A stretch of DNA of 32,000 nt. It comes from Desulfocapsa sulfexigens DSM 10523 (lineage in GTDB: Bacteria > Desulfobacterota > Desulfobulbia > Desulfobulbales > Desulfocapsaceae). This document shows positions 4,212 to 21,672 of this stretch, piece by piece. The notes beneath the pieces were generated by a model. It made no database searches. It worked only from the letters and a program-made list of their open reading frames with translations, and was not told the DNA's origin. Every line of letters starts with the position of its first letter. Position 1 is the first letter of the stretch. The translations under genes were made by a program, and so were the position numbers. The stretch covers positions 660,001 through 692,000 of the forward strand of contig NC_020304.1 in the NCBI RefSeq assembly GCF_000341395.1. The letters are read 5' to 3'.

Positions 4212-4296
4212 TGGAACACCCGTTATCACAAAGAGATACGATCACAAAACATAAGCAACAGCAGTCTTTTAAACCCCTGGGAAGAGGAGAAACAGT

Positions 4297-5679: not shown

Positions 5680-6179
5680 ATACAAAATCGGTTTTCCTCG
5701 TTCTCATGGTTTTCATATCGACAACAGGCTTACTGCAGGCCTCTTCTGCAACAGGAAAAGAAGCGCTGTGCGAAAAAACCGCCTCATCTCTTGCACGTGA
5801 GGGAAAACTTGATGAAGGGATTAATGAAATCAGACACTGTATAGAAAAAGGAAGCTCTGGAGCCAAGAGTCATGTTGTCCTTGGCTACCTTCTTCTTGAA
5901 AAAGGTGAGCCCCAGCAAGCAATGGCATCTTTTGAAAAAGCGTTGCAACTCCGTCCACGCTCCAGTGACGCTAAGACCGGAAAGGGAATAATCCTGGCAC
6001 AACAGGGGGATCTAAAAGGGGCTGAAGCAATCCTTCAGGATGCCTTAAAATTAAACCCGGATCCGGCCCGCACATACTATGAGCTTGGTATTCTCTACCA
6101 ACAGCTTGGTGATACACAACAGGCTGTTGACTTTTTTAAGCAGGGAATTGCATCCTACGAAGAGGAAAAAGGCAAATGA
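5676..6179 (+). CDS. Secreted TPR-repeat protein
   Basis: Signal peptide MNTKSVFLVLMVFISTTGLLQASSA. TPR-like units include VVLGYLLLEKGEPQQAMASFEKALQLRP, GKGIILAQQGDLKGAEAILQDALKLNP and YYELGILYQQLGDTQQAVDFFKQGI. ATGA overlaps at both ends (5676-5679, 6176-6179). Confidence 0.8.
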   Translation: MNTKSVFLVLMVFISTTGLLQASSATGKEALCEKTASSLAREGKLDEGINEIRHCIEKGSSGAKSHVVLGYLLLEKGEPQQAMASFEKALQLRPRSSDAKTGKGIILAQQGDLKGAEAILQDALKLNPDPARTYYELGILYQQLGDTQQAVDFFKQGIASYEEEKGK

Positions 6180-7309
6180 CAAGAAAACCCCACACACGAT
6201 TCTTTCCCAGGAAGAAAAATCTTCTGATTATTCTTTTTGCAACATTTGCCCTGCTCCAGAGTTCCATTTCTGTGCCTGCCCTCAAAACACTGGGAGTGGG
6301 GACAGAGGCACCTGACTTTGAGCTGGTGGATCTCAACGGTAAAAAACAGAATTTCTCGTCAATCAGGGGGGACAAACAGACCATTCTCCTCTTTTGGGCC
6401 TCCTGGAGCAGGCAGTCGGAAAAAGCTCTTAAGGAGATGGAAAAGCTTCATATAAAGTATAAGGACATGGGACTATCGGTTGTCGGTATCAATGTTGAAA
6501 GACAAACCATAGATGCCAAAGCCATGACTGACATTCAGGGGATACATGATCGTCTCCAGATCACGTTTCCCATCCTGATCGACCGTGGGCTTGTCTCTTT
6601 TCATGACTATGGAGTTATTGCAGTACCCACTACGGTCATCCTGGACAAGGACAGGCAAATAGCCTTTGAGCTTTCGGGTTTTCCTCTGGTTGGAGCACGG
6701 GATATGATCCACTTTGTTGCAGCGTCCATTGAAGGCAAAGAGGCAACCGTTGTGCTTGCTGAAAAAACAGGATACCAGCCTGACAAAAAGGCTGTTCGAT
6801 CCTGGAACATGGGAGTAAAAGCCCTGAATTCAAAACGCACCTACAAATCCGCTGAAATGTGGTTTAAAAAAGCGATTCAGGCAGATCCTAAATTCATCCA
6901 GCCATATCTCAGTCTGGGTATCTTTTACCAGGAACAGGGCAAGCCGCCACAGGCAAGAGAACAATTTCAACGGGTTCTCCAGGAACAGCCAGACAACGTG
7001 AAAGCCCTGAGTCAAATGGGTCTCTCACTTCTGGAGGAAGGTTCCCTCGCATCCGCACGGGAAATGCTGGAAAAAGCGATCAAAGCAGACGAGGCACACA
7101 CACCAAGCTTCTACTATCTGGGCTACCTCACCGGCAGGGAAGGTGACCTGAAAAAAGCGGCTGAACTGTTTACTAATGCTGAAGAAATCAATCCAATGGA
7201 TTACCGGATAAATGTGTATCGGGGCATGATGTTTGAGGAGCAGAACAATCTGAGTGAGGCGGCAAGGAGTTACAAAAATGCTCTCAAACAGCTGTTAAAT
7301 TTACAATGA
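6176..7309 (+). CDS. Thioredoxin-fold (TlpA/ResA/CcmG-like) domain lacking active-site cysteines, fused to C-terminal TPR repeats
   Basis: N-terminal hydrophobic signal or anchor. The redoxin-like core reads APDFELVDLNGKKQNFSSIRGDKQTILLFWASWSRQSEKAL...GLSVVGINVE...FPILIDRG...YGVIAVPTTVILDKDRQI. The usual W-C-x-x-C is W-S-R-Q-S (6404-6418). The C-terminal half is TPR (YLSLGIFYQEQGKPPQAREQFQRVLQEQPDN...). Confidence 0.8.
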   Translation: MTRKPHTRFFPRKKNLLIILFATFALLQSSISVPALKTLGVGTEAPDFELVDLNGKKQNFSSIRGDKQTILLFWASWSRQSEKALKEMEKLHIKYKDMGLSVVGINVERQTIDAKAMTDIQGIHDRLQITFPILIDRGLVSFHDYGVIAVPTTVILDKDRQIAFELSGFPLVGARDMIHFVAASIEGKEATVVLAEKTGYQPDKKAVRSWNMGVKALNSKRTYKSAEMWFKKAIQADPKFIQPYLSLGIFYQEQGKPPQAREQFQRVLQEQPDNVKALSQMGLSLLEEGSLASAREMLEKAIKADEAHTPSFYYLGYLTGREGDLKKAAELFTNAEEINPMDYRINVYRGMMFEEQNNLSEAARSYKNALKQLLNLQ

Positions 7310-8295
7310 AACTCCTACGTCACACTCCATATATTGTGCTGGCTGTGCTGGTCTTCTGTACCATTGACGGCAGAGCTGGCACAGGATTTTCGGTACAGTT
7401 TCCTCCACCCAACAGCTATATTGAAAATGAACATCTCAGTATCATCCTGGAGCCTGGAAACCGGGGGGTAGATCAGATACGGATTGTATCAGGGAAAAAG
7501 GCGCCCCTCAACATTCCCGTACGATCTGGCAGCACCAAGGTCTGTTTCGGAGTTTCTCTTGACAAAGGGATGAACACCATACAGATCACCGGGCTGAAAC
7601 AGGGAAAGATCGTTGCGCAGACAGATCGTACTGTTTTCTTTCGCTCCGATCTTTTTCCCAGATTCAGAGTTCCCCCAGCTGAATTCAAACGATATTATTT
7701 TCATTTTATCAACAACGAAAAGAGCTGCGCCAGCTGCCATGACATGGAACCAACCCTCAGCAGTCTCCGCCCTGAATCCCCAAAACAATCGCCCTGCTAC
7801 ACATGCCATTCGACAAAAAGTAGCGATGCATTTACCCACAATCCGGCCGCACAATGGACCTGTTTTGCCTGTCATGAGGTACTCCGAGGGGAACGAAAAT
7901 ACACCTCTCCAAAACCGGATCAGAAGGTGTGTTATCCATGCCACAATTATGAAGTGAGGGACTGGAAAAAAAAGAAACTGATGCACGGGCCAACGGCTGT
8001 TGGTCATTGTACTCTCTGCCACAATCCACATGGCTCAAAGTGGCCGGCACTGCTACGGATGCAGACCACTGACCTCTGTGTAAACTGTCACGAAGATAAG
8101 GCCTCGGGTGCCCACGTCATCGCAGGATTTTACGGCAAGGGACACCCGGTCAGGGGAGTCAAGGATCCCTTTAATCCAAAGCGGGAATTCACCTGTGCCG
8201 GCTGCCACAATCCACATGCCGGAGATTCACAAAGTCTCCTGAATCACGACAACAGCAATATGACTACGTATTGTACTCTCTGCCACAAAATGTAG
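7306..8295 (+). CDS. Secreted octahaem c-type cytochrome with N-terminal beta-sandwich-like domain
   Basis: Signal peptide present. The first ~130 aa are haem-free and beta-rich. Eight CXXCH motifs follow: CASCH, CYTCH, CFACH, CYPCH, CTLCH, CVNCH, CAGCH, CTLCH. The start overlaps the upstream stop (ATGA 7306-7309). Confidence 0.9.
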   Translation: MKLLRHTPYIVLAVLVFCTIDGRAGTGFSVQFPPPNSYIENEHLSIILEPGNRGVDQIRIVSGKKAPLNIPVRSGSTKVCFGVSLDKGMNTIQITGLKQGKIVAQTDRTVFFRSDLFPRFRVPPAEFKRYYFHFINNEKSCASCHDMEPTLSSLRPESPKQSPCYTCHSTKSSDAFTHNPAAQWTCFACHEVLRGERKYTSPKPDQKVCYPCHNYEVRDWKKKKLMHGPTAVGHCTLCHNPHGSKWPALLRMQTTDLCVNCHEDKASGAHVIAGFYGKGHPVRGVKDPFNPKREFTCAGCHNPHAGDSQSLLNHDNSNMTTYCTLCHKM

Positions 8296-8330: not shown

Positions 8331-8346
8331 TGGCACATGGTTTGCA
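8331..8346 (+). promoter_or_regulatory. Sigma54 (RpoN) -24/-12 promoter element upstream of hsp20
   Basis: The sequence is TGGCAC-atggt-TTGCA (TGGCAC 8331-8336, TTGCA 8342-8346). It matches the consensus TGGCAC-N5-TTGCW exactly and ends 88 nt upstream of the hsp20 ATG. It lies in the 139-nt gap after the cytochrome operon. Confidence 0.55.
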
Positions 8347-8434: not shown

Positions 8435-8914
8435 ATGGCAAAGAAAAATGAACTGGCAAAGAAAGAAGAAAAGCGACCCGTTTCTTTTTTTGATGAGATG
8501 ACTAAGCTCTTCGAAAGGTTTCCCAGTCATCCCTTTTCAATGATGACTCACCCAACCATGTGGTCTGGCGGTCCTTTTTCCAAAATGGCTGACATCTCTC
8601 CCTCTGTTGATATTTTCGAGGAAGATGACACCATTGTGGTAAAAGCAGATATTCCTGGCATCAGCAAAGAGGATCTCAATGTTTCCATTAACGATAGCAT
8701 TCTGACCCTCTCCGGTGAGAAAAAGCAGGAGGAGAAAATTGAAAAGAAAAATTACCATCGGGTAGAGCGCTCATACGGCTCCTTCTCCCGTAGTTTTCAG
8801 CTTCCTGGTGCTGTGAACAGCGATCAGGTTAAAGCCTCTTTTAAAAAGGGAGTTCTGGAAATACGAATCCCCAAGACTGGTGATAACAAGAGAAAAAAAA
8901 TAAGCATCACATAA
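8435..8914 (+). CDS. Small heat-shock protein, Hsp20/alpha-crystallin family
   Basis: GGAGGA RBS at 8423-8428. Alpha-crystallin domain reads VDIFEEDDTIVVKADIPGISKEDLNVSINDSILTLSGEK...YHRVERSYGSFSRSFQLPGAVNSDQVKASFKKGVLEIRIPK. Confidence 0.92.
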   Translation: MAKKNELAKKEEKRPVSFFDEMTKLFERFPSHPFSMMTHPTMWSGGPFSKMADISPSVDIFEEDDTIVVKADIPGISKEDLNVSINDSILTLSGEKKQEEKIEKKNYHRVERSYGSFSRSFQLPGAVNSDQVKASFKKGVLEIRIPKTGDNKRKKISIT

Positions 8915-9020: not shown

Positions 9021-9193
9021 CCACGAATCATTCCCAGAATCATCCAAACAACAGACAATTATTCAACAGCTAATATTTTATGGTGCAGTAAGGTTGTTAA
9101 AAATGTATGAAGTTCTGCCTCAAAGGCTTTACCTTACAGAATGTACAGGAATACCAAAACAACTCTATCGGCAGGGCAAAGGATCACATCATT

Positions 9194-10228
9194 ATGAAAA
9201 TTTGTTTTATTATGTATCCATGGGAACGGGTAACCCCAGAAACAGATACCACGCTCAGACTGATTCATGAGTGCGTCAACAGAGGATATCTGGTCGCCAT
9301 CACGACACCAAATAAGCTGACCATCCGGGAAAGCATTACCAGTGCTTTCTGCAATGTGGCAGTAAAAGGTAAAACCTCACAAAATATCCCCTCGTTTTAC
9401 CGAAATGTGGAGTTTAAAAAACTTCTGCTCCCCCTGGCCGGTTTCGATGCGATCTTTATGCGTGCCAACCCACCGCTGGACACCCTGGCTCTGAACTTTC
9501 TTGACTCTGTACGTGATCACACATTTATCATAAACGATATCGACGGATTGAGAATCGCCAACAATAAAGTCTACACAGCCTCTTTTCAGGAGGAGGCCCA
9601 GGAATATATTCCCAGAACCTTTGTTTCAAAAAATCGAGATTACCTTATACGGATACTGAACGAATCGGAAGACGAACGGATGATCATGAAGCCACTGGAC
9701 GGTTACGGTGGCCGCGGTGTAATCATTCTCGAGAAATCAGCAAAACGCAATGTCTCCTCCCTCCTTGATTTCTATATCGGGGAAGGAGCGGACACCAACT
9801 ATGTGATCCTCCAGGAATATGCCCATGGAGCTGAAGACGGTGACGTGAGGATAATGATGCTCAATGGAGAACCCATAGGAGCAATGCGCCGTATACCGGC
9901 CCAGGATGACATCCGTTCAAACGTACATGCAGGAGGGAGTGTTGTCAAACACACGCTCAGCAACAGGGAAAGGCTGCTGTGCAAGGCGGTGGGGCCGAAA
10001 CTGGTTCGTGACGGTCTTTATTTTGCTGGTCTTGATGTCATTGGTGAAAAACTGATCGAGGTGAATGTACTCAGTCCCGGCGGTGTAGCCAGGATTAACA
10101 AACTCAACCGAACAAAACTTCAACAGAAGGTAATCGACTTTGTGGAGCGTGTTGTCGCAACCAAAGAGATCTCTATCAGTCGCAAACATTCATTTCGCAA
10201 GAGTATTGAAGATGCAGACCTTGTCTGA
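9194..10228 (+). CDS. Glutathione-synthetase (GshB)-family ATP-grasp ligase, possibly a paralogue with a different substrate
   Basis: Colinear similarity to E. coli GshB as I recall it: MKICFIMYP.., IMKPLDGYGG, DGDVRIMMLNGEPIGAMRRIP..IRSNVHAGG, GLYFAGLDVIGEKLIEVNVLSPGG. I prefer the ATG at 9194 (AAGGA at 9179-9183; homology starts there) over the track's 9107. No gshA is present in the window. Confidence 0.85.
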   Translation: MKICFIMYPWERVTPETDTTLRLIHECVNRGYLVAITTPNKLTIRESITSAFCNVAVKGKTSQNIPSFYRNVEFKKLLLPLAGFDAIFMRANPPLDTLALNFLDSVRDHTFIINDIDGLRIANNKVYTASFQEEAQEYIPRTFVSKNRDYLIRILNESEDERMIMKPLDGYGGRGVIILEKSAKRNVSSLLDFYIGEGADTNYVILQEYAHGAEDGDVRIMMLNGEPIGAMRRIPAQDDIRSNVHAGGSVVKHTLSNRERLLCKAVGPKLVRDGLYFAGLDVIGEKLIEVNVLSPGGVARINKLNRTKLQQKVIDFVERVVATKEISISRKHSFRKSIEDADLV

Positions 10229-12203
10229 AAAAGAGATCATTCGCAACATACGGCGTCAGGAACCCTTCGCAGCAGTTATTACCAGCGGAGCCTTCAGTAT
10301 CAGGGTTGATCGTTATACCCCTGCAGTCTGTACCGCCATTCATGCAGGACATGCAGTGCAGGAGGAGCTTCACGACAAACTGCTCCTGAGTGAAACCGAA
10401 AGACGCTATGAGGAAGATCCTTTTACCGGTGACATGCTGGCTTCTCTACCCATCGTCATGGAGGCGCTTGACTCACGTTACCAGTATGATCTGAACAGAT
10501 TGCCAGAGGAAGCCATCTATGATGAAGCCTGGGGTAAAAAGGTCTGGAAAGAGCCCCTCACAGAAAAGGAGAAACAGGCAAGCATTGCCAGGCATGACAG
10601 TTACTACAGGGTGCTTCATAGCCTTTTGACTGTTCTGGAAAAACTGTTTGCCCGCTGCATCATCTATGACCTGCACTCCTACAACCACAAACGCCTGACA
10701 GCTGCTACCCCGCTCTTCAACATAGGCACCCATTTCATAAATATGGATGAGTACCAACCGGTTGTGAATCATTTAAAGGGATTGCTCCTGAAAACAGAAT
10801 TTCCAAATATCGAAAACCGGCTGGCCCTCGATGATGTTTTTTTGGGAAAGGGCTATCAGGCGGCCTTTATCCATGAGCAGCACAACAAGAGCCTCTGTAT
10901 TCCCCTTGAAATCAAAAAAGTCTATATGGATGAGACCACGGGAGAGTCATACCCGCTTATCCTTGAAGCAGTTACTGAAACCCTGAAGCAGGCATTCAGC
11001 TACAATGCAGCCTATTTCAGCAGAAAATTTACCGGAAAAAAAATCCAGCGTGCCCTCTTCTTTGCCGAGGAAAGCAGCCGTGTAGTAAAAAAAGTTGATA
11101 CGGCTCTCTATCGGGTGGCCAAGGGGATTGATACACTGCGTTACATTAATCCTGTAAATCTTAGCCAGGAACGGAAACGTTTTTTTGCTAAACAGTGTAG
11201 TTACACTCCACAATTTCGCTATCGACAACTGAAAATTGACCCCTTTGCTTTTCGCAAGAAGCTTTACGCCATTGGTGTGGATACTATTCAGGATGTCAGC
11301 ATCCGCCAGCTCTATAGGAGCACTATCGACATGCTGGCCCAGAAAGTTGATCTTCTGACCACCATTGGAACAGACAGTTTCCTCTATAACTCTCTGCGGT
11401 TTCACGGAGAACCATCCGAGGCAGATATAGAACTGGCCCGTTTTCTTATTGCCGCCCCCCCTATCGAAAAAGAAAAAAATCCTAAACTGCTGAGCGCCAG
11501 AGAATGTGCAAATGTATTTAAGCGAGCTGAAAACGATTACGGCTTTAGCTTTCAGGTGGAACTGAGTAGTCGCATCGTGGCCAGAGCGATGGTTTCCAGT
11601 GGCCGCCGTAAAGTTATGATCAATCGCAACGCCCAGTTCACAGAAGTTGAGATTCAGGCGCTTATTCACCATGAATTAGGGGTACATATGGTGACCACCA
11701 GCAACGCCAGGCAACAGTATTTGAAAATCTTCAGGATGGGCCTGCCAGGGAACACCGAGACACAGGAGGGTCTGGCACTCCTCAGCGAATATCTGTCAGG
11801 CAACCTGACTCTTGCCCGTTTACAATCACTGGCCCACCGGGTAATGGCGGTGCACATGATGGTCAAAAACTATGATTTCCCAAGAACTTTTAAGGCCCTC
11901 AGCGATGACTACGGTCTCTCCCGGGAGGATGCCTTTAATCTGACGGTACGGGTATATCGTGGAGGGGGATTTACCAAGGATTATCTCTACCTCACAGGTC
12001 TGCGTAAGGCTCTGCAGCTCTATCGCTCCGGAACGGACCTACAACCCATGTTTGTGGGGAAGACTTCCATTGCCTTCCTCGACACCTTAAAAGAAATGCT
12101 TGGCCGGGATGTGGTATCCAACCCCCTGCATCTCCCCAGGGCCTGGCAGATGAAAGTACAGAGCAGTCCGATTCTGGACTATCTGCTAAGTTCTTTTGGA
12201 TAA
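10212..12203 (+). CDS. Fusion protein: N-terminal N-formylglutamate-amidohydrolase-like domain + C-terminal DUF1704 / QEGLA-motif (MATCAP-like) zinc metallopeptidase domain
   Basis: The C-terminal half carries HELGVH (HExxxH, 11670-11687) and TQEGLALLSEY (QEGLA, 11763-11777) about 30 residues later, the signature of the DUF1704/'QEGLA motif protein' family. The N-terminal half has an FGase-like IIYDLHSY motif. The ATG at 10212 overlaps the upstream stop by 17 nt; the track's TTG at 10140 is less likely. Confidence 0.8.
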   Translation: MQTLSEKEIIRNIRRQEPFAAVITSGAFSIRVDRYTPAVCTAIHAGHAVQEELHDKLLLSETERRYEEDPFTGDMLASLPIVMEALDSRYQYDLNRLPEEAIYDEAWGKKVWKEPLTEKEKQASIARHDSYYRVLHSLLTVLEKLFARCIIYDLHSYNHKRLTAATPLFNIGTHFINMDEYQPVVNHLKGLLLKTEFPNIENRLALDDVFLGKGYQAAFIHEQHNKSLCIPLEIKKVYMDETTGESYPLILEAVTETLKQAFSYNAAYFSRKFTGKKIQRALFFAEESSRVVKKVDTALYRVAKGIDTLRYINPVNLSQERKRFFAKQCSYTPQFRYRQLKIDPFAFRKKLYAIGVDTIQDVSIRQLYRSTIDMLAQKVDLLTTIGTDSFLYNSLRFHGEPSEADIELARFLIAAPPIEKEKNPKLLSARECANVFKRAENDYGFSFQVELSSRIVARAMVSSGRRKVMINRNAQFTEVEIQALIHHELGVHMVTTSNARQQYLKIFRMGLPGNTETQEGLALLSEYLSGNLTLARLQSLAHRVMAVHMMVKNYDFPRTFKALSDDYGLSREDAFNLTVRVYRGGGFTKDYLYLTGLRKALQLYRSGTDLQPMFVGKTSIAFLDTLKEMLGRDVVSNPLHLPRAWQMKVQSSPILDYLLSSFG

Positions 12204-12216
12204 GGAGATGATGTAT

Positions 12217-13074
12217 ATGAAATTTGCGGATATGCCCGATCAATATAGAGACTATGCTTCCTCAAAGGTGGTGATTCTGCCCATACCCTACGATGGTACT
12301 TCAACCTGGATGAAGGGTGCTGATCGCGGGCCGCAGGCCATATTGGATGCCTCCTTTCATCTGGAACTATACGATATAGAAACTGGAACGGAGGTATACC
12401 GTCATGGTATCTGTACTCTGGATCCAGTTTCCTGTCCAAAGGATCCAGGAGAAATGGTTGCAGAACTTCGGCAGCATGCCCTGCCCCTCTTCCGCGACAA
12501 CAAACTTGTGGTGGGGCTTGGCGGAGAGCATTCCATCACTGTCGGCCTGCTCCAGGCGGCACAGGCCCGCTATCCGAATTTGAGTGTCCTCCAGCTTGAT
12601 GCCCATACGGATCTGCGTGACAGTTATATGGGAAGCCCCTATAACCATGCCTGCGTTATGGCTAGAGCCAATGAAATCTGCCCGGTTGTACAGGTGGGAA
12701 TCCGCAGCATGGATATTGAGGAGATGGACAGTATCGAGCCAGACCGCCTGGTGCTTGCCCATGACCTGCATCGACACGGCATCAATGCTGCAACCAATGC
12801 TCTGGATCAGCTCACTGACACAGTTTATCTCACCATTGACCTTGATGTCCTTGATCCTTCCTGTATGCCATCCACCGGAACTCCGGAGCCAGGAGGAATT
12901 GACTGGTACATGCTGAACCAGATTATCCAGTACGTGGCCAGTGAAAAGAAAATAGTAGGCATGGATGTCGTAGAACTATTACCTCGCAAACATAATCAGG
13001 CCCCAGATTTCCTTGCTGCCAAACTTATTTACCGCTCTCTGAGTATGATCCTCACTGATTCTCTGAACCCATAG
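12217..13074 (+). CDS. speB: Agmatinase (ureohydrolase/arginase family)
   Basis: Mn-ligand motifs GGEHSIT, LDAHTDLRD and LTIDLDVLDPSCMPSTGTPEPGG. AAGGAG RBS at 12202-12207. The ATG at 12217 has the best spacing; in-frame alternatives are 12208, 12211 and TTG 12196. Confidence 0.88.
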   Translation: MKFADMPDQYRDYASSKVVILPIPYDGTSTWMKGADRGPQAILDASFHLELYDIETGTEVYRHGICTLDPVSCPKDPGEMVAELRQHALPLFRDNKLVVGLGGEHSITVGLLQAAQARYPNLSVLQLDAHTDLRDSYMGSPYNHACVMARANEICPVVQVGIRSMDIEEMDSIEPDRLVLAHDLHRHGINAATNALDQLTDTVYLTIDLDVLDPSCMPSTGTPEPGGIDWYMLNQIIQYVASEKKIVGMDVVELLPRKHNQAPDFLAAKLIYRSLSMILTDSLNP

Positions 13075-13136
13075 GCCAAAAACTGGCAGAACCTCGAAAA
13101 ACAAGAACATCCAGTTCCGTTTTTTTTAGTATTACA

Positions 13137-13159
13137 GAACTGAGAGTTCCTTTTTTTTT
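13137..13159 (+). terminator. Weak candidate intrinsic terminator after speB
   Basis: A 5-bp stem GAACT-gag-AGTTC (13137-13149) is followed by T9 (13151-13159). A second T8 run at 13120-13127 follows an even weaker 4-bp hairpin. The stems are short, so support is poor. Confidence 0.3.
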
Positions 13160-13255
13160 GAGTTGCCCCGTGTTATCCTGCCATAAAACAACCCTGCCAA
13201 AGTAATTTTCTGCAAAAACTCCCAAAAGCAGGTAAACATGATTAAGGATAAACAA

Positions 13256-13271
13256 TGGCATGCTGTTTGCT
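13256..13271 (+). promoter_or_regulatory. Sigma54 (RpoN) -24/-12 promoter element upstream of the LysW-like ORF/speA
   Basis: The sequence is TGGCAT-gctgt-TTGCT, with GG and GC at the canonical 12-nt register. It ends 62 nt upstream of the ATG at 13334 and lies in the 259-nt gap after speB. Confidence 0.5.
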
Positions 13272-13333
13272 ATGCGCAGAACGTACGGGAAAGGGGGGAA
13301 ATCAACCGGTACTTTCAATTTTAAGGTAACAGG

Positions 13334-13516
13334 ATGGGTAAAAAAAGATGTATGAGCTGTGGCGGTGATATTCGAATTTATTACGATCATGAGATTGGCG
13401 ATGAAGTATTCTGCGAAGAATGTGAACGGGAATACAGAATCTGTTCTTTACGCCCGGTTCATCTGGAACCTCTGGAAACAGGCAACGACTATCATTTTGA
13501 AGAAGATGATTATTAA
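13334..13516 (+). CDS. Small LysW-like zinc-ribbon protein (candidate amino-group carrier / acidic-tail substrate protein)
   Basis: The 60-aa product is MGKKRCMSCGGDIRIYYDHEIGDEVFCEECEREYRICSLRPVHLEPLETGNDYHFEEDDY. It has C6-x2-C9 and C27-x2-C30 (four-Cys ribbon), then an ...LRPVHLEP linker and an acidic tail. This is the same layout as Thermus LysW as I recall it (...VVCEDCGAELEV..LDPLRLEP...EDWGE). It sits 42 nt upstream of speA. There is no homology search to back this. Confidence 0.6.
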   Translation: MGKKRCMSCGGDIRIYYDHEIGDEVFCEECEREYRICSLRPVHLEPLETGNDYHFEEDDY

Positions 13517-13558
13517 CAGATATCAGCTCCCTGGAACAGAAGGGACTCGGAACATTTA

Positions 13559-15478
13559 ATGCGTAACACACAACACCAACCGTCTCAACAGAGAAGCTGT
13601 ACTCCCTATAATGTCGAATCCTGGGGCAACGGCTATTTTACTGCCAACGAGAAAGGGCACCTCTGCGTCCTTCCTGAAAAAAAGGAAATCGGTCCCAGAA
13701 TCGACTTTATGGAGGTCATCAAAGAGATACAGGAACAGGGAATTCCTTTTCCCACCGTTATACGCTTCCATGACATCCTTCGGGCTCAGGTTCAGCTCCT
13801 CAATATCACCTTTGCTAATACAATTACAGAGCATGGTTACCAGGGAAGATTTTATGGAGTGTATCCCATAAAGGTCAATCAGATGCGGGAGGTTGTTGAG
13901 GAAATCATTGATGCGGGCGGTCCCTTTGACCACGGTCTGGAGGCTGGATCAAAATCAGAGCTCCTGGCCTGTCTCGCCTATAATGACAACAGTAATTCTC
14001 TCACCATCTTAAACGGCTACAAGGACGAGGATTATATCCGACTCGCCCTGCTCGGCCGCAAGCTTGGACGAAAGATCATCATTGTTGTTGAAAGTTTTTC
14101 TGAGTTTGAGATGATTATTCGCCTTTCCAAGGAGATGCAGGCTGACCCGCTCATTGGGATCCGAACCAAGCTTTCAGTCAAAGGACGGGGACGCTGGGCC
14201 GGATCCAGCGGTGACCGTGCCAAATTCGGTCTCACCTGCAGCGAAATCGTTGAAGGAGTAGAGCTTCTGCAGCGAAACGGCATGACCAACTGTCTCAAAC
14301 TCCTCCACTTTCATGTGGGCAGCCAGATCCCCGATATTCGCATCGTAAAAGAGGCAGTCACCGAGGCAGGACGCATCTATGCCAACCTTGCCCAGAGTGG
14401 GATCATAATCGACTATTTTGATGTGGGTGGCGGACTCGGTATTGATTATGATGGCAGCAAATCAACGGGCGACTCTTCACGAAACTATACCCTGGCAGAA
14501 TACTCTGCAGATATTGTCAGCGGCCTGCAGCAGATCTGTGACGAGATGAATGTTCCCCACCCCCATATTGTCAGTGAAAGTGGCCGGTATATCACAGCCC
14601 ATCACTCCTGTGTTGTCACCAATGTGATTAACACCATCCATCAGGCCAGCAATCCGTGCAAAACAACCGTTAAAGAAGATGAACATGTCCTTCTTGGTAA
14701 TATGCGGGAATCAGCAGAGCACCTCAAGCTTGAGAACTGTCAGGAAATTTTCAATGACATTCAACAGATTAAAGAGGATACCATTGCCGCCTTCCGCCTC
14801 GGAGTCATCTGCCTGGTGGAACGGGCCAAAATAGAAACTCTCTACTGGCTGATTATTAACCGCATTGACACTATGCTTGCTGATCTCGATTTCATCCCCG
14901 AGGAAATGCAGCAGATAAAAGAACTCAAGGCCAGTCAGTACCTCTGCAACTTCTCCGTGTTCCAGTCTGCGGCTGACACCTGGGCCATCAGCCAGATCCT
15001 GCCCATTATGCCGCTGCTTCGCCTCGATGAAGAACCCAGTGAACGCTGCTCCCTTGCCGACATCACCTGTGATTCAGATGGAAAAATTACCCGCTTTATT
15101 GCCAAAGACGGGTATGATCAGAGTCTGCTCCTTCATACCCTGCAGCCAGACGAGGATTACTTTATCGGTCTTTTTCTCACCGGGGCCTATCAGGATGTTA
15201 TGGGTGATATGCATAACCTCTTTGGCCGCCTTAACGAGGTACATATCTACTGCGACGACGACGATCCCAACGACTTTTACATTGAAGAGGTGATCAGAGG
15301 AACATCGTCCCAGCAGGTTCTTGCCACCATGCAGTACAGCCCTGAAATCATGGCCAGATCTATCAAGACACAGATAGATCTGCAGATTAAACAGGGAACA
15401 GTGCTTCCACGGGAAGGTGTTGGCCTGATTGATTTTTACGAAAGCTGTCTCCAGGGTTACACATACCTGAATATTTAA
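13559..15478 (+). CDS. speA: Biosynthetic arginine decarboxylase (PLP, fold III)
   Basis: YNVESWGNGYFTANEKGHLCV, GVYPIKVNQ (PLP-Lys) and GLEAGSKSELLA match the E. coli SpeA landmarks YNIAWWGNNYY..., VYPIKVNQ and GLEAGSKAEL. Length is 639 aa. Confidence 0.93.
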   Translation: MRNTQHQPSQQRSCTPYNVESWGNGYFTANEKGHLCVLPEKKEIGPRIDFMEVIKEIQEQGIPFPTVIRFHDILRAQVQLLNITFANTITEHGYQGRFYGVYPIKVNQMREVVEEIIDAGGPFDHGLEAGSKSELLACLAYNDNSNSLTILNGYKDEDYIRLALLGRKLGRKIIIVVESFSEFEMIIRLSKEMQADPLIGIRTKLSVKGRGRWAGSSGDRAKFGLTCSEIVEGVELLQRNGMTNCLKLLHFHVGSQIPDIRIVKEAVTEAGRIYANLAQSGIIIDYFDVGGGLGIDYDGSKSTGDSSRNYTLAEYSADIVSGLQQICDEMNVPHPHIVSESGRYITAHHSCVVTNVINTIHQASNPCKTTVKEDEHVLLGNMRESAEHLKLENCQEIFNDIQQIKEDTIAAFRLGVICLVERAKIETLYWLIINRIDTMLADLDFIPEEMQQIKELKASQYLCNFSVFQSAADTWAISQILPIMPLLRLDEEPSERCSLADITCDSDGKITRFIAKDGYDQSLLLHTLQPDEDYFIGLFLTGAYQDVMGDMHNLFGRLNEVHIYCDDDDPNDFYIEEVIRGTSSQQVLATMQYSPEIMARSIKTQIDLQIKQGTVLPREGVGLIDFYESCLQGYTYLNI

Positions 15479-15497: not shown

Positions 15498-16676
15498 ATG
15501 TCACGAGTACTTATTATCGGGGCCGGCGGAGTCGGTTCGGTTGTTGTCCACAAATGCTGCCAGGTGCCTGAGATATTCTCTGAAATCATGCTGGCTTCCC
15601 GTACCAGAGAAAAGTGCGACGCCATCGCGGCCCAGCTGCCCATAGCCATCCAGACCGCCAGGGTAGATGCGGATCAGGTAGAAGAGCTGGTAGCCCTGAT
15701 GCAGAGCTTCAAACCGGATTTATGTATAAATGTTGCTCTCCCCTACCAGGATCTTACCATCATGGATGCCTGCCTGGAGTGTGGTGTCAATTACCTTGAT
15801 ACGGCCAACTACGAACCACGCGATGAAGCAAAATTCGAATATCACTGGCAGTGGGCCTACCAGGAGCGTTTCAAGGAGGCTGGACTCATGGCTCTGCTTG
15901 GTTCCGGATTTGATCCCGGTGTCACCAATGTATTTACCGCCTGGGCCCTGAAAACCCAGTTTGATGAAATCCGGGAACTTGACATCATTGACTGTAATGC
16001 CGGAGATCATGGCCAGCCCTTCGCTACCAATTTTAATCCCGAGATCAATATCCGTGAGGTCACAGCCCCGGCCCGGCACTGGGAAGATGAGCAATGGGTG
16101 GAAACTCCTGCCCTGTCAACGAGCAAAGATTTTGACTTTCCCGAAGGGATCGGTCCGCGGAAGATCTACCTAATGTACCACGAAGAACTGGAGTCCCTGA
16201 CCAGACATATTCCCGGTCTGGAAAAAGCACGTTTCTGGATGACCTTTTCCGACAACTACCTCCGTCATCTTGAAGTGCTTCAGAACATTGGAATGACCAG
16301 TATAGAACCCGTGGAATACAATGGACAGCAGATCATCCCTCTGCAATTTCTGAAAGCACTCCTGCCCGATCCCGGCTCTCTTGGCCCCCTCACCCATGGA
16401 CGCACCTGCATAGGCTGTCTGATCAAAGGAATAAAGGATGGACGGGAAAAGGAGTACTATGTCTACAACATCTGCGACCATCAGCAGTGCTATGAAGAGG
16501 TTGGAGCACAGGCTGTTTCCTATACCACCGGCGTCCCGGCCATGATTGGGGCCATGCTTATGCTCAGCGGAGTCTGGAGCGGACACGGGGTTTTTAACAT
16601 GGAACAACTCGACCCTGCACCTTTTATGGAGAAGTTGAACCTGCATGGTCTGCCATGGAAAGAAGTTATCTCCTGA
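15498..16676 (+). CDS. Carboxy(nor)spermidine dehydrogenase (saccharopine-dehydrogenase family)
   Basis: N-terminal Rossmann motif VLIIGAGGVGSVVVHK...IMLASRT. At ~390 aa it matches CANSDH/CASDH, and it sits immediately upstream of nspC, overlapping it. Confidence 0.85.
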   Translation: MSRVLIIGAGGVGSVVVHKCCQVPEIFSEIMLASRTREKCDAIAAQLPIAIQTARVDADQVEELVALMQSFKPDLCINVALPYQDLTIMDACLECGVNYLDTANYEPRDEAKFEYHWQWAYQERFKEAGLMALLGSGFDPGVTNVFTAWALKTQFDEIRELDIIDCNAGDHGQPFATNFNPEINIREVTAPARHWEDEQWVETPALSTSKDFDFPEGIGPRKIYLMYHEELESLTRHIPGLEKARFWMTFSDNYLRHLEVLQNIGMTSIEPVEYNGQQIIPLQFLKALLPDPGSLGPLTHGRTCIGCLIKGIKDGREKEYYVYNICDHQQCYEEVGAQAVSYTTGVPAMIGAMLMLSGVWSGHGVFNMEQLDPAPFMEKLNLHGLPWKEVIS

Positions 16677-17812
16677 ATTTCGACCCGGAGCAGGTGAATA
16701 CCCCCTGCTTTGTGGTCGATGAATCGGCACTCCTTCGCAATCTCAAAATCCTGGATGAGGTGCAGCAGCAAACAGAGTGCCGGATCCTCCTGGCTCTTAA
16801 GGGATTTGCCATGCCCGGCGTTTTCCCTCTTGTTCGTAAATATCTGCACGGGGTCTGTGCCAGTTCTCCCCACGAAGCAAGACTTGGAAGAGAGGATTTT
16901 CAGCGGGAAGTACACAGTCACGGTCCTGCCTTCAGCGACAGGGATCTGACCGAGCATCTGCTCTACTGTGATCATCTGGTCTTTAACAGCTTTCAGCAGT
17001 GGCACCGTTTCCAGAAACAGGTCAGGGAATGTCCGAGAGATATCTCCTGCGGTCTGCGGGTTAACCCCGCTCACTCCGAAACTGCGGTCGCCCTGTATGA
17101 TCCCTGCCGCCCTGGCTCCCGCCTCGGTATTTTGCGGGAACAGTTTAGTGGAAAGGATCTTACTGGAATCAGTGGTCTCCACCTCCACACTCTCTGTGAA
17201 AAGGGAGCAGACGCACTGGCTCGAACGGCAGAGGTCTTTGAAGAGCAATTCGGGGAATTTTTACCTCGCATGCAGTGGCTCAATCTGGGAGGCGGTCATC
17301 TTATCACGGCTCCTGGCTATGACACTGGTCTCCTTTGTGAAGTCATCAACCATTTCCGCTCCCGCCATGATCTGACCATTTATCTGGAACCAGGTGAGGC
17401 CATAGCCATCAACACCGGAGCACTTATCACTACTGTCCTTGATATAATTGACAATGATGGTCCCATAGCTATCCTTGACACCTCGGTCTCCTGTCATATG
17501 CCAGATGTCCTGGAAATGCCCTACCGGCCTGATATCAGGGGGGCCTCCCTGCCCGATACTCTGGCCCACAACTACCGTTTGGGAGGAGTCTCCTGTCTGG
17601 CTGGAGATATGCTTGGAGATTACTCCTTTGCTGCCCCATTGCAGGTTGGTGACCGCCTTATCATCGAAGACATGAGCCACTACACCATGGTCAAGACCAA
17701 CACCTTTAACGGAGTTCGCCTGCCGGATATCGCACTGTACAGGCCAGAAAGGAAGGCAGTAGAGACCCTCCGCAGCTTTACTTATGAAGACTACCGGAAT
17801 CGTCTTGGGTAA
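16655..17812 (+). CDS. nspC: Carboxy(nor)spermidine decarboxylase
   Basis: Fold-III decarboxylase with the NspC-type N-terminus TPCFVVDESALLRNLKILD...ILLALKGF. It overlaps the dehydrogenase gene by 22 nt, which is the canonical pairing. Confidence 0.88.
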   Translation: MERSYLLNFDPEQVNTPCFVVDESALLRNLKILDEVQQQTECRILLALKGFAMPGVFPLVRKYLHGVCASSPHEARLGREDFQREVHSHGPAFSDRDLTEHLLYCDHLVFNSFQQWHRFQKQVRECPRDISCGLRVNPAHSETAVALYDPCRPGSRLGILREQFSGKDLTGISGLHLHTLCEKGADALARTAEVFEEQFGEFLPRMQWLNLGGGHLITAPGYDTGLLCEVINHFRSRHDLTIYLEPGEAIAINTGALITTVLDIIDNDGPIAILDTSVSCHMPDVLEMPYRPDIRGASLPDTLAHNYRLGGVSCLAGDMLGDYSFAAPLQVGDRLIIEDMSHYTMVKTNTFNGVRLPDIALYRPERKAVETLRSFTYEDYRNRLG

Positions 17813-19132: not shown

Positions 19133-20608
19133 ATGAACTCTGTACTTATAATAATTGATTCTCTGGATCTGTGGGAGCCCTACTATCACAGCGACAGTGT
19201 TATTACAGCCATTCAGTATCTGCAACGTGAAGAATTAAGTCAGGATCCTCATCTGGTAATCAATCTCTGTTCAGATCTCTCCTATAACTCTGAGGGCTAT
19301 TACTGTTCCTTGCTGGCTCAGGCAAGAGACCATAAAGTCATCCCGAAAGTTGAAACTTTGAACAAGTTCGACAACAGCATCACCATGAAGCTCGATAGTG
19401 CAATGAGCCGCCTTCTCAGATTTGACAAGTCTGCTCTTTTTGAAAAAGAGTGTGACTGTAGTCATCATCTGGATCTGTTTTTTGGGAAGTGTGAAGATCC
19501 AAAGTACGAACGTCTTGGTCGTTTCTTCTTTGATCTATATCCCTGTCCACTTATGCGGGTAAGCTTCAGTGGACCGCAACGAGCGGAGATCTGTAATATT
19601 CGTTTGCTGTCACTCACCGAACTTGATGACCGTCAGCAGGATCTTTTTGCAGGCAGTCTGGATTTATTCAACAAAAAGGTATGGCGGCAGCCACGCAGTA
19701 AAAAACCGGCCCGCTATGATCTGGCAATCTTTTATGACCCGGAAGAACTCCTTCCACCAAGTAACAAAAGTGCCCTCAAGCTCTTTTTAAATGAAGCCAG
19801 AAAAATGAATGTGAATGCTGAGCTGCTCACCGCAGATGATGCTTCACGCCTAATGGAATTCGACGCACTCTTTATCCGCCAGACAACTGCGGTGAACCAC
19901 ATCACCTATCAACTGGCGCAAAAGGCACAGCAGGCTGACATGGTAGTCATAGATGATCCAGCCTCCATTGTCTGCTGCACCAATAAGGTCTACCTCAAAG
20001 AACTTATGGACAGATCTGCCATACCAGCACCCAGATCGATTCTCCTGTTCAGGGAAAAAATTCCATCCTATGAGGAAGTCTCTGAATACCTCGGACGGAC
20101 GATGGTCATGAAGATTCCGGATGGTTCTTTTTCCATCGGTGTTTCCCTGGTTTCTTCAGATAAGGAATACATCGCCCTGCAGGAAGCACTTTTTCAGCAC
20201 TCTTCGGTTTTACTTATACAGGAATTTATGCCCACGGAGTTTGACTGGAGAATCGGTGTATTAAATGGCGAGTGTATCTACGCCTGTAAATATTACATGG
20301 CCCGCGGCCACTGGCAGATTTATCAGCATAAGGCAAGTGGTCTCACAAAATCCGGCAAAAGTGAGACCGTTCCTGTTCACCAGGTACCATCCCAGGTCAC
20401 CCGTATTGCCAAAAAAGTGTCCGCAGCCATTGGCAAAGGATTGTACGGGGTTGACATAAAAGATGTCGATGGCCAGGCAGTGGTGATCGAGGTTAACGAT
20501 AATCCCTCCATTGATCACGGCGTCGAAGACAAGATTCTTGGCAGTGAACTGTACCGGATAATTCTGCGTGAGTTTATTGCCCGTTTGAACAAAAAAAGAA
20601 GGGCCTGA
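19133..20608 (+). CDS. RimK/LysX-family ATP-grasp ligase with ~200-aa N-terminal extension
   Basis: The C-terminal half has RimK-type motifs: MVMKIPDGSFSIGV, LLIQEFMPTEFDWRIGVLNGE and GLYGVDIKDVDGQAVVIEVNDNPS. I do not recognise the N-terminal domain. The RBS is weak, so the start is less certain. Confidence 0.8.
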   Translation: MNSVLIIIDSLDLWEPYYHSDSVITAIQYLQREELSQDPHLVINLCSDLSYNSEGYYCSLLAQARDHKVIPKVETLNKFDNSITMKLDSAMSRLLRFDKSALFEKECDCSHHLDLFFGKCEDPKYERLGRFFFDLYPCPLMRVSFSGPQRAEICNIRLLSLTELDDRQQDLFAGSLDLFNKKVWRQPRSKKPARYDLAIFYDPEELLPPSNKSALKLFLNEARKMNVNAELLTADDASRLMEFDALFIRQTTAVNHITYQLAQKAQQADMVVIDDPASIVCCTNKVYLKELMDRSAIPAPRSILLFREKIPSYEEVSEYLGRTMVMKIPDGSFSIGVSLVSSDKEYIALQEALFQHSSVLLIQEFMPTEFDWRIGVLNGECIYACKYYMARGHWQIYQHKASGLTKSGKSETVPVHQVPSQVTRIAKKVSAAIGKGLYGVDIKDVDGQAVVIEVNDNPSIDHGVEDKILGSELYRIILREFIARLNKKRRA

Positions 20609-20614
20609 TACGAG

Positions 20615-21079
20615 ATGACCAGGATTATGGCAGTTACCAAAGAAGATATCCCCGGGCTCTGCCTCCTCGAGGAACAACTTTTTACCTGTGATCGGATATC
20701 TCCCAGGCAATTCAGTTATCTGATTTCCAAAGCAAACAGTGTTGTTATCAAGGCAGTCTGTTCCGAAATATTTGCAGGGTACATGGTGCTGCTGAGGCGC
20801 AGAAATAGCCGGAGGATGCGGATCTATTCACTCGGGGTCGCCCCATCTGTGAGACGACTGGGTGTTGCAGCTGAGATGCTTGCATTTGCAGAAGATATTG
20901 CTGCAAAACATAACTGTAATTGTCTGAGTCTCGAGGTTTCCAAACATAACGATGCCGCCCTGAGATTCTACAAAAATGCTGGTTTTCTCTACTATGGTGA
21001 AAAACAGAAGTTTTACGAAGACGGAACCACTGCCCTGCTGTTAAAAAAAAACATACCTGAAAGAGAAACACAACCATGA
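20615..21079 (+). CDS. GNAT family N-acetyltransferase (RimI-like size)
   Basis: Acetyl-CoA motif region IYSLGVAPSVRRLGVAAEML...LSLEVSKHNDAALRFYKNAGF. It starts 6 nt after the RimK-like stop, and its stop overlaps the SET start. Confidence 0.85.
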   Translation: MTRIMAVTKEDIPGLCLLEEQLFTCDRISPRQFSYLISKANSVVIKAVCSEIFAGYMVLLRRRNSRRMRIYSLGVAPSVRRLGVAAEMLAFAEDIAAKHNCNCLSLEVSKHNDAALRFYKNAGFLYYGEKQKFYEDGTTALLLKKNIPERETQP

Positions 21080-21672
21080 TTCATCCTGACACCGAAGTTC
21101 GCTACATAAACGAAGAAAAAGGGAACGGACTCTTTGCCACCAGTTTTATTCCCAGAGGAACTGTCACCTGGGTACTCGATGTCCTCGACAGGGAGATCCC
21201 CCCTGAAGACATGGCAGCCTATGACCAGCAAATCCGAGAAGTTCTCCTCACCTATTCATTCCGGAACAGCAAGGGGAACTACATCTTCTGTTGGGATAAC
21301 GGTCGCTACATAAACCACAGTTTTCATGCAAACTGTTGCCTTACCCCCTATAACTTTGAGATTGCTATAAAGGATATCAATGCCGGGGAAGAATTAACAG
21401 ATGACTACGGTACTCTTAACATCATCGAACCCTTTACAGTTGATTCGGAAGGCGGCAATCGAAACACTGTCTACCCCGATGATCTTCTGCACTACAGTAA
21501 AATATGGGATGCAAAAATTGCCGCGGCTTTTCCAGAACTGTCAGTGGTAAAACAGCCTCTGTGGAAGTTTTTTTCCCCAGAAACCCAAAAGGCCGTTCAA
21601 CAGGTTCTTGAGGGAACCTCCCCACTGCCTTCCATCAAATCCTGCTATTATGATAAGAGCATTGTGGAATAA
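21076..21672 (+). CDS. SET-domain protein (putative lysine methyltransferase)
   Basis: EKGNGLFATSFIPRGT, GRYINHSFHANC (NHS/C motif) and GEELTDDYG (ELxxDY motif) are typical of the SET fold. ATGA overlap at 21076-21079. Confidence 0.8.
   Translation: MIHPDTEVRYINEEKGNGLFATSFIPRGTVTWVLDVLDREIPPEDMAAYDQQIREVLLTYSFRNSKGNYIFCWDNGRYINHSFHANCCLTPYNFEIAIKDINAGEELTDDYGTLNIIEPFTVDSEGGNRNTVYPDDLLHYSKIWDAKIAAAFPELSVVKQPLWKFFSPETQKAVQQVLEGTSPLPSIKSCYYDKSIVE

Follow-up and report, generated by a model that had tools for sequence, protein, structure and literature searches.

LysW is the textbook case of a metabolite carrier that bears its cargo on its own tail, and it has been tied to lysine, to arginine and to a few natural products. 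LysW-like carriers have been described only from the lysine and arginine pathways and from some natural-product clusters. The LysW-like amino-group carrier proteins (AmCPs) of secondary-metabolite clusters keep the carrier logic, with a LysX-type loader accompanied by homologues of the kinase, reductase and aminotransferase. The attachment site in LysW is the C-terminal glutamate (PMC12998189). Here we describe UWK_00575, a 60-residue protein encoded in a 32,000-nucleotide stretch (the window) of the Desulfocapsa sulfexigens DSM 10523 chromosome (NC_020304.1, positions 660,001 to 692,000 of the forward strand; chromosome length 3,986,761 bp). The protein resembles LysW in its zinc ribbon but ends in tyrosine, and its gene is preceded by a sigma-54 promoter element and lies among genes of polyamine synthesis. 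We tentatively read it as a LysW-derived small adaptor or regulator of polyamine metabolism that would act non-covalently through its tail.

The small open reading frame (ORF) at 13334-13516 (+) was singled out by an earlier, sequence-only reading of the window, and its position, strand, ATG start and length of 60 amino acids hold when the sequence is re-read. The product, MGKKRCMSCGGDIRIYYDHEIGDEVFCEECEREYRICSLRPVHLEPLETGNDYHFEEDDY, has the two cysteine pairs claimed for it (C6xxC9 and C27xxC30), an isoelectric point (pI) of 4.5 and 16 acidic against 7 basic residues. The distances agree as well: 42 nt separate the stop codon from the ATG of speA (13559), and the MATCAP-family ORF placed ~1.1 kb upstream ends at 12203, 1.13 kb 5′ of UWK_00575. 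The remark that gene callers would easily miss the ORF does not apply: the databases already contain the identical protein (AGF77156.1 / WP_015402854.1), annotated as a "hypothetical protein" of D. sulfexigens DSM 10523. Some of its homologues are labelled 'LysW' in IMG.

A word-indexed search returned four close homologues; when 1.84 billion cluster representatives were searched exhaustively with HMMER, a family of 32 proteins emerged at E ≤ 1e-3. Orthologues were found at 19 loci in a scan of one genome per species; all belong to the Desulfobulbales, spread over Desulfocapsa, Desulfogranum, Desulfurivibrionaceae and the cable bacteria. The ratio of nonsynonymous to synonymous substitution rates (dN/dS) is ~0.12 (Nei-Gojobori, 13 gap-free orthologues, pairs with unsaturated dS); the ribbon alone gives 0.10 and the tail 0.25. 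At codon positions 1, 2 and 3, these 13 orthologues have 34, 29 and 58 variable sites, the third position being by far the most variable, and no frame other than the annotated one is free of stops in 13/13. The ORFs at 13052-13390 (-), 13302-13571 (-) and 13359-13559 (+) were rejected as genes, their frames containing stops in the orthologues. C27 and C30 are invariant in the family, C6 and C9 are kept in at least 90% of the sequences, and P41, L44 and Y53 are invariant across the close family. The sequence-only reading had named a lack of homologues, an absence of selection and unconserved cysteines as grounds for giving up the ORF; none of these holds, and the ORF therefore stands. By these comparative measures, UWK_00575 is a real protein-coding gene under purifying selection and more than a leader of speA.

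Every curated LysW model recognizes UWK_00575 below its threshold: PF21344 (Pfam LysW) at E = 6e-5 and 23 bits (gathering score 27), TIGR01206 at E = 3e-6 and 26.9 bits (cut-off 53.2), and NF041070 at 25 bits (cut-off 75). A profile of 23 UWK_00575 family members, compared with solved structures, reaches Thermus LysW (3WWL chain A) at E = 3.5e-11 and Thermococcus LysW (5K2M chain E) at E = 4e-10. The alignment spans the ribbon, the P-x-x-L-E-P linker and the tail, and pairs Tyr53 with the Trp of EDWGE. In the AlphaFold2 model of UWK_00575, the predicted local distance difference test score (pLDDT) is 82-89 for residues 1-40, where five β-strands are predicted, and falls below 50 at residues 51-60, a tail predicted to be disordered. 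A Foldseek search of the PDB with this model returned LysW chains as its top six matches (probability 0.94-1.0, TM-scores 0.57-0.84), of which the closest, 5eio_C, superposes with a root-mean-square deviation of 1.2 Å over 46 residues; at the seventh match, the probability drops to 0.3. Profile and model together place UWK_00575 in the LysW superfamily by virtue of a zinc-ribbon fold and the P-x-x-L-E-P linker. They bear out the order of LysW-like zinc ribbon, 'LEP' linker and acidic tail reported from the sequence alone, for which an AlphaFold fold check had been proposed.

The C-terminus departs from LysW. UWK_00575 ends in ...HFEEDDY, with neither a terminal Glu nor Glu-Glu, and the tail consensus of the close family is ...L-E-x-L-E-x-x-x-D-Y-x-F-E-E-D-E-Y. 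The last three residues are -DDY in UWK_00575 and -DEY in most 60-aa orthologues, and a terminal -EY persists in otherwise diverged tails (RVNEY in Desulfogranum, HYEY in Electrothrix gigas). Thirty family representatives with <60% identity have tails that average 44% acidic and 17% aromatic residues; 19 of them end in Tyr, Phe or Trp, where ~8% would be expected (binomial P ~3e-14). The statement that the tail ends in Tyr, unlike that of LysW, therefore stands for UWK_00575 and, as an aromatic end, for 19/30 representatives, but it does not extend to the Desulfurivibrionaceae orthologues, which lack a terminal Tyr. Across the sequences compared, an aromatic C-terminus is a family trait that is statistically strong but not universal. 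Because 19/30 end this way, an aromatic free-carboxylate tip after an acidic run suggests specific recognition by a protein pocket, beyond simple charge effects.

The sigma-54 element noted ahead of the ORF has gained weight from comparison. Exact matches to TGGCAY-N5-TTGCW in the 32 kb number two against 0.12 expected, one ahead of UWK_00575 and the other ahead of an HSP20 gene. Synteny was counted over 24 distinct loci including the window, with 2-10 kb of DNA available on each side (loci are labelled L001, L003 and so on). The motif is present in 14/24 and lies 55-78 nt 5′ of the orthologue in the 13 loci besides the window. Activator-type palindromes stand alongside it. GAAC-N5-GTTC occurs twice in the whole 32 kb, both times upstream of UWK_00575, and is found in 14/24 loci; in the 13 others, the sites lie at about -270, -235 and -130 from the ATG, matching the positions in the window. 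These palindromes were exposed by an alignment of the upstream regions of seven loci, in which the columns of palindrome 2 (GAAC....AGTTC) are invariant and a 'GAGG(T/A)A' block just 5′ of the ATG is conserved.

An activator gene lies within 8 kb of the small gene in 15/24 loci and, in 13 of these, it is divergent and 1.3-2 kb upstream. The divergent NtrC-family activator of the relatives has a Sigma54_activat domain and HTH_8; its receiver domain barely exceeds the Pfam threshold, and its conserved Lys is missing when the sequence is read by eye. In the closest relative (L003), the gene order is speB, activator (-), small gene, c7, speA, where c7 encodes a second small protein described below. 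Because L003 has both the activator and c7 in place, D. sulfexigens appears to have retained the promoter and the putative binding sites but to have lost or moved these two genes. No terminator-like site was found in the 42-nt gap between UWK_00575 and speA and no convincing + strand terminator before the SET gene (21672); UWK_00575 is probably co-transcribed with speA as the first cistron ahead of it. No Rfam family was found in the window, so that nothing points to a riboswitch leader. The second sigma-54 match, TGGCACatggtTTGCA at 8331-8346, is ~90 nt 5′ of an HSP20/alpha-crystallin gene (8435-8914) located beside the GshB-like/MATCAP/speB operon, which suggests that this gene is sigma-54-dependent.

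The neighbours of the small gene in the 24 loci are a sigma-54 activator (15), c7 (15), polyamine genes (13), ATP-grasp genes (6), SET genes (6) and a MATCAP gene (1, the window). In the window, speA is followed by the genes for carboxy(nor)spermidine dehydrogenase (CANSDH) and decarboxylase (CANSDC), and one or both of the latter are syntenic with the small gene in eight further loci. The 13 loci with polyamine genes within 10 kb display at least four gene orders: small-(c7)-speB-speA-CANSDH-CANSDC, CANSDH-CANSDC-speA-speB-small, the arrangement of L005 and that of the window. Two spermidine routes are involved. The Desulfobulbales use speA/speB/CANSDH/CANSDC, and a second, GC-rich lineage (L024, L025, L049, L050) has speD/speE, with speE and speD found past a divergent activator in L024 and L025 and speD-speE directly divergent from the LysW-like gene in L049 and L050. 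Because the link is held in two lineages with different spermidine routes, gene order points to polyamines as such, and not to one enzyme, as the conserved association, which reaches beyond the local adjacency to speA.

The LysW-like gene of L024 and L025 is followed by an AdoMetDC-like gene and by genes for a FemAB-like acetyltransferase, an ATP-grasp_4 ligase and a pyridoxal-phosphate decarboxylase. In L024:3458-8369, from a GC-rich metagenomic lineage, it heads an operon that also has a 71-aa highly charged ORF, the enzymes being an AdoMetDC-like pyruvoyl enzyme, a FemAB-like Acetyltransf_6 protein, an ATP-grasp_4 ligase and an Orn/DAP/Arg decarboxylase; judging by its gene content, the cluster may serve to make an amine or a peptide.

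The protein c7 has ~85 residues, is unannotated and is encoded directly 3′ of the small gene (for example, L004:10375-10644, L009:10183-10467 and L052:964-1257). It carries the motif LVPDQW..G..ALLTDDE.KY..LLR..IE..G, some members end in -GG, and it has no match in Pfam or NCBIfam. Its best PDB profile matches, to ATG8/GABARAP, are not significant (E ~0.8). c7 also follows the LysW-like gene of a subfamily that is only 38% identical (L052), in the order PG_binding, LysW-like, c7 and a lysine-2,3-aminomutase-like radical SAM enzyme. The cable bacteria have a minimal module (L018-L021) of divergent activator, sigma-54 promoter, small gene and c7, with no enzymes. In close relatives, the polyamine genes are surrounded by clusters of LysW-like paralogues with very different acidic/aromatic tails: L003 has five within 17 kb (L003:6798-15465), L005 has four (L005:6975-11392) and L001 three (L001:295-3030). 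Some of them lie immediately 5′ of speB, the position taken by the GshB-like and MATCAP genes in the window. In the Desulfurivibrionaceae loci L008, L010 and L014, a short, very acidic protein, 'c12', is encoded between speB and the LysW-like gene; it has an apparent signal peptide followed by a D/E-rich region and looks secreted.

Our preferred reading, which we hold at somewhat under an even chance, is that UWK_00575 acts as a LysW-derived adaptor or regulator for polyamine metabolism in a non-covalent, tail-mediated manner, a mechanism that we infer. An NtrC-type activator, encoded divergently in the relatives and presumably elsewhere in the D. sulfexigens genome, would turn on the UWK_00575 promoter, and the transcript would supply the small protein together with the spermidine enzymes. 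Physical docking would be LysW-like, with the acidic body and tail on a basic surface of the partner and the [D/E]-aromatic-COOH tip in a pocket. By analogy with the C-terminal tip of single-stranded DNA-binding protein (SSB), such docking is most likely non-covalent, by a peptide that scaffolds or regulates polyamine-synthesis partners. Candidate partners are the c7 of the relatives, SpeA, SpeB and the downstream RimK-type ligase. Four observations lead us to favour docking over covalent loading. First, the most conserved co-transcribed partner, c7 (15/24), is small and non-enzymatic. Second, an ATP-grasp gene is near in only 6/24 loci. Third, the terminal residue differs among the orthologues, where it is Y, F, R, N, A or D. 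Fourth, the RLAN-RimK/GNAT modules of other phyla have no LysW-like ORF within 10 kb, whereas canonical lysW adjoins lysX.

Several points weigh against this reading. Neither an orthologous activator gene nor c7 was found in the 32-kb window, whose arrangement is derived. The 67-aa Desulfurivibrionaceae orthologues end in YER, YDN, YEA, YEN or YDD (Y-[DE]-x) and have no aromatic terminus. Three types of ATP-grasp are encoded near family members (RLAN-RimK, a RimB-RimK fusion and, in L024, ATP-grasp_4), and this variety, with the FemAB-like transferase and two decarboxylases of L024, could mean that the tail does undergo covalent modification. As a single order, the Desulfobulbales, supplies most of the loci, shared ancestry and not selection may explain part of the synteny, and other LysW-like subfamilies occur in unrelated gene contexts. 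An extension of the reading to all non-canonical LysW-like proteins was rejected: subfamilies with poly-acidic tails (L031, L033, L035, L040) adjoin unrelated genes (PBP1A, VWA), and no ATP-grasp or activator gene was found near them.

Among the alternatives, the one that survives best, although we consider it unlikely, is a covalent carrier or acceptor, AmCP-like or S6-like, whose tail carboxylate would be loaded by a RimK/LysX-type ligase (UWK_00580 in the window, ATP-grasp_4 in L024). An amino acid or amine would be ligated and, while tethered, would be the substrate of neighbouring enzymes such as the decarboxylases, GNAT and SET proteins, until a hydrolase freed it. All characterised LysW-family proteins are covalent carriers loaded by LysX-type ATP-grasp enzymes, and a LysW-like gene shares the L024 operon with genes for a FemAB-like transferase, an ATP-grasp ligase and two decarboxylases. 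In the window, the RimK/LysX-family ligase UWK_00580 lies 5.8 kb 3′ of UWK_00575; LysX is the closest NCBIfam match of its ligase domain, weakly, at 71 bits against a cut-off of 275. UWK_00580 and the GNAT and SET proteins, all encoded on the same strand as UWK_00575, are candidate tail-modifying enzymes. RLAN-RimK and SET homologues are found 0.8-2.4 kb 3′ of the small gene in L009 and L011, SET alone in L008, L010 and L017, and a bona fide RimK with a RimB-type protease domain near the small gene of the cable bacteria L015 and L018. A RimK-family gene is therefore near in 5/24 loci (window, L009, L011, L015, L018), and the ATP-grasp_4 of L024 makes the sixth ATP-grasp locus; the three kinds lie within 0.4-6 kb.

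Against covalent loading, the other 18/24 loci have no ATP-grasp in the available DNA, and the tail has no C-terminal Glu and no constant last residue. Clusters of up to five paralogues at a single locus are out of the ordinary for a carrier. No LysZYJK-type kinase, reductase, aminotransferase or M20 hydrolase was found among window ORFs of at least 150 aa outside longer annotated genes. A six-frame scan with the family hidden Markov model found no LysW-like ORF within 10 kb of RLAN-RimK/GNAT in Bacteroidota and another lineage; RLAN-RimK was accordingly rejected as an obligate partner and is facultative at best. RLAN-RimK itself is always followed by a small GNAT gene and, in Desulfobulbales, also by SET (window 19133-21672; L047:10001-11949; L048:10001-12087). 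The RLAN-RimK/GNAT pair is widespread, with >7,900 homologues including those of Bacteroidota. The D. sulfexigens genome paper lists UWK_00580 and UWK_00572 among five 'glutathione synthases' (PMC3739170).

Rather less probable is a feedback loop like that of PspA and PspF, in which the small protein with c7 would bind its own sigma-54 activator and tune a polyamine regulon. The enzyme-free module of the cable bacteria fits such a loop, as does the activator's receiver domain, near the Pfam threshold and apparently lacking the conserved Lys. In the Desulfurivibrionaceae, however, the gene is part of the polyamine operon, and neither an activator nor a sigma-54 promoter adjoins it; the L049 gene sits beside speD-speE without an activator, and no activator gene is near in the D. 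sulfexigens window.

A broader proposal, improbable in our view, makes the whole family a protein-tail carrier or acceptor for amine chemistry, to which an ATP-grasp enzyme would join an amino acid or a polyamine. Attachment would be at the aromatic C-terminal carboxylate or at the Glu/Asp side chains of the tail, with UWK_00580 (RimK/LysX), UWK_00572 (GshB) and the ATP-grasp_4 of L024 as candidate ligases. Decarboxylases and transferases would work on the tethered group, and an amidohydrolase or carboxypeptidase (the fusion of N-formylglutamate amidohydrolase, FGase, with MATCAP) would release it or reset the tail. If true, polyamines would be made while tethered to a carrier, or bacteria would have their own version of the tubulin cycle of tail ligation and trimming.

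We regard a narrow tubulin-like cycle, in which the terminal Tyr would be cleaved off by UWK_00573 (MATCAP) and put back by the neighbouring GshB-like ATP-grasp, as very improbable. The Tyr-ended acidic tails and the enrichment of the family in aromatic C-termini are in keeping with it, as is the MATCAP/QEGLA protein 1.1 kb upstream, paired with an ATP-grasp ligase, in whose translation an intact HELGVH and the QEGLA motif can be read by eye. UWK_00572, UWK_00573 and speB (9107-13074) probably form one operon, their frames overlapping end to end. This coupling of ligase and hydrolase to speB is confined, among the 24 loci, to D. sulfexigens. When the window proteins were mapped onto the 23 other loci, speB did recur, but no MATCAP or GshB-type gene was found beside the small gene in any of them, including the closest relative L003, which has LysW-like paralogues 5′ of speB instead; a conserved MATCAP/GshB association was thus rejected, and the link to a MATCAP peptidase suggested in the sequence-only reading is not supported. 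The window's ligases belong to the glutathione-synthetase and RimK types, no domain of the TTL family was found in the window, and the GshB-like/FGase/QEGLA trio is, by the TIGR02421 family description, a widespread self-contained module. A MATCAP cycle is chemically possible but without comparative support.

That UWK_00575 is a mere regulatory leader ORF of speA (speFL-type) with a functionless product is highly implausible: it is on the same strand, 42 nt 5′ of speA, with no terminator between, but its fold is conserved, purifying selection covers the whole frame including the zinc ligands, and its position relative to speA varies, being elsewhere 3′ of speB, beside RimK/SET, or alone with the activator and c7. 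A canonical LysW/ArgW carrying α-aminoadipate or glutamate for lysine or arginine synthesis, as LysW homology, the fold and automatic IMG annotation might imply, is close to untenable for a protein that scores under every curated cut-off and has no EDWGE motif or terminal Glu, in a window with no lysX/Z/Y/J/K set, when canonical loci are organised differently and EDWGE-ended LysW genes in metagenomes have a LysX-type ligase gene directly after them.

Table 1. Coordinates of UWK_00575, its promoter region and nearby genes (window positions; distances in nt)
Feature	Position	Strand	Remarks
GshB-like ATP-grasp (PRK12458 type), UWK_00572	9107-10228	+	
FGase-MATCAP/QEGLA fusion, UWK_00573	10140-12203	+	687 aa; N-formylglutamate amidohydrolase + MATCAP/QEGLA peptidase
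Agmatinase, speB	12196-13074	+	
Upstream palindrome 1, GAACATCCAGTTC (GAAC-N5-GTTC)	13105-13117	+	-229 from ATG; putative activator (enhancer-binding protein, EBP) site
Upstream palindrome 2, GAACTGAGAGTTC (GAAC-N5-GTTC)	13137-13149	+	-197 from ATG; putative activator site, T-run after
Sigma-54 -24/-12 element, TGGCATgctgtTTGCT (TGGCAT-N5-TTGCT)	13256-13271	+	78 nt before UWK_00575 ATG
Shine-Dalgarno-like AAGG	13323-13326	+	7 nt before UWK_00575 ATG; GAGG or AAGG in aligned loci
Small ORF, UWK_00575	13334-13516	+	ATG start, 60 codons, stop ends at 13516
UWK_00575 residues 1-40	13334-13453	+	Basic N-terminus (GKKR), zinc-ribbon body (C6, C9, C27, C30), GD motif 22-23
UWK_00575 residues 41-60	13454-13513	+	P-x-x-L-E-P linker, predicted disordered acidic/aromatic tail ...DYHFEEDDY
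Biosynthetic arginine decarboxylase, speA	13559-15478	+	NF003763, 809 bits
Carboxy(nor)spermidine dehydrogenase	15498-16676	+	Complete spermidine pathway, with the decarboxylase
Carboxy(nor)spermidine decarboxylase	16655-17812	+	Complete spermidine pathway, with the dehydrogenase
RLAN + RimK/LysX-type ATP-grasp, UWK_00580	19133-20608	+	Best NCBIfam match of ligase domain LysX, weak, 71 bits
RimI-like GNAT	20615-21079	+	
SET-domain protein	21076-21672	+	

Two other parts of the window deserve mention. At 1405-8295, three multihaem cytochromes (paired-CXXCH, MtrC/MtrF-like domains) are clustered with an NHL-repeat protein, a TPR protein and an AhpC/TSA-TPR fusion. At 24338-25747, a beta-CASP metallo-beta-lactamase RNase has strong but sub-threshold NCBIfam matches to Cas14 (type VII CRISPR; 432 bits, cut-off 800) and to aCPSF1.

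Literature searches on LysW/AmCP/ATP-grasp with polyamine, sigma-54, RimK/RLAN and zinc-ribbon returned no description of the UWK_00575 family or its context. The novelty lies not in the fold, which is that of LysW, but in the tail, the mode of regulation, the partner c7 and the metabolic context. Together, they define a conserved LysW-derived branch that has dropped the terminal Glu in favour, usually, of an aromatic residue, is probably controlled by sigma-54 and an activator, and is found in the context of spermidine genes in two lineages. Under any of the mechanisms considered (docking adaptor, feedback regulator or covalent acceptor), this would be an unrecognised layer of polyamine homeostasis in the sulfur-cycling Desulfobulbales, cable bacteria included. 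It also corrects the automatic 'LysW, lysine biosynthesis' labels on proteins of this family.

The comparison with known systems can be drawn as follows. With the LysW/ArgW proteins of Thermus, Thermococcus and Sulfolobus (PDB 3WWL, 5K2M, 3VPB), the UWK_00575 family shares the CxxC...CxxC zinc-ribbon fold, the acidic surface, the P-x-x-L-E-P linker and an acidic, disordered tail in which one aromatic position is conserved (Tyr53, corresponding to the Trp of EDWGE). It differs in that the tail extends beyond this residue to end in Tyr, Phe or Trp, whereas LysW ends in Gly-Glu; in being without lysZ/Y/J/K and only sometimes near an ATP-grasp gene; in its probable sigma-54/activator control; in lying amid polyamine rather than lysine or arginine genes; in its pairing with the 85-aa c7; and in being multi-copy in some genomes. 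The LysW-like AmCPs of Streptomyces and Serratia secondary-metabolite clusters and of encapsulin Family 3 clusters are likewise LysW proteins recruited beyond primary lysine and arginine synthesis, but their set of loader, kinase, reductase and aminotransferase is not present at UWK_00575.

Ribosomal protein S6, the substrate of RimK, also has an acidic C-terminal tail, and RimK-family ATP-grasp genes occur near the UWK_00575 family. S6 ends in Glu-Glu, which RimK requires, whereas UWK_00575 has no terminal Glu-Glu, its tail ends in an aromatic residue, and RimK adjacency is limited to a minority of loci (5/24). Alpha-tubulin, with MATCAP/VASH and TTL, shares the acidic run with an encoded terminal Tyr, and a MATCAP peptidase and ATP-grasp ligases are nearby in the window; the differences are that a MATCAP neighbourhood is found in 1/24 loci, that the ligases are not TTL-type and that the terminal Tyr is not universal. 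In its regulation, the locus of the relatives recalls pspF-pspABCDE, in that small effector genes are driven from a -24/-12 promoter with palindromes upstream and an NtrC-family activator encoded divergently; the effectors are unrelated to Psp proteins, and in D. sulfexigens the activator gene is not adjacent. The tip of SSB is an acidic run ending in ...DDDIPF-COOH, which serves as a docking peptide in bacteria. It has in common with the UWK_00575 family a disordered acidic tail, an aromatic last residue and a free carboxylate, and it is the mechanistic model that we favour. The two are not homologous, and the globular domain of SSB is an OB fold, where that of UWK_00575 is predicted to be a zinc ribbon.

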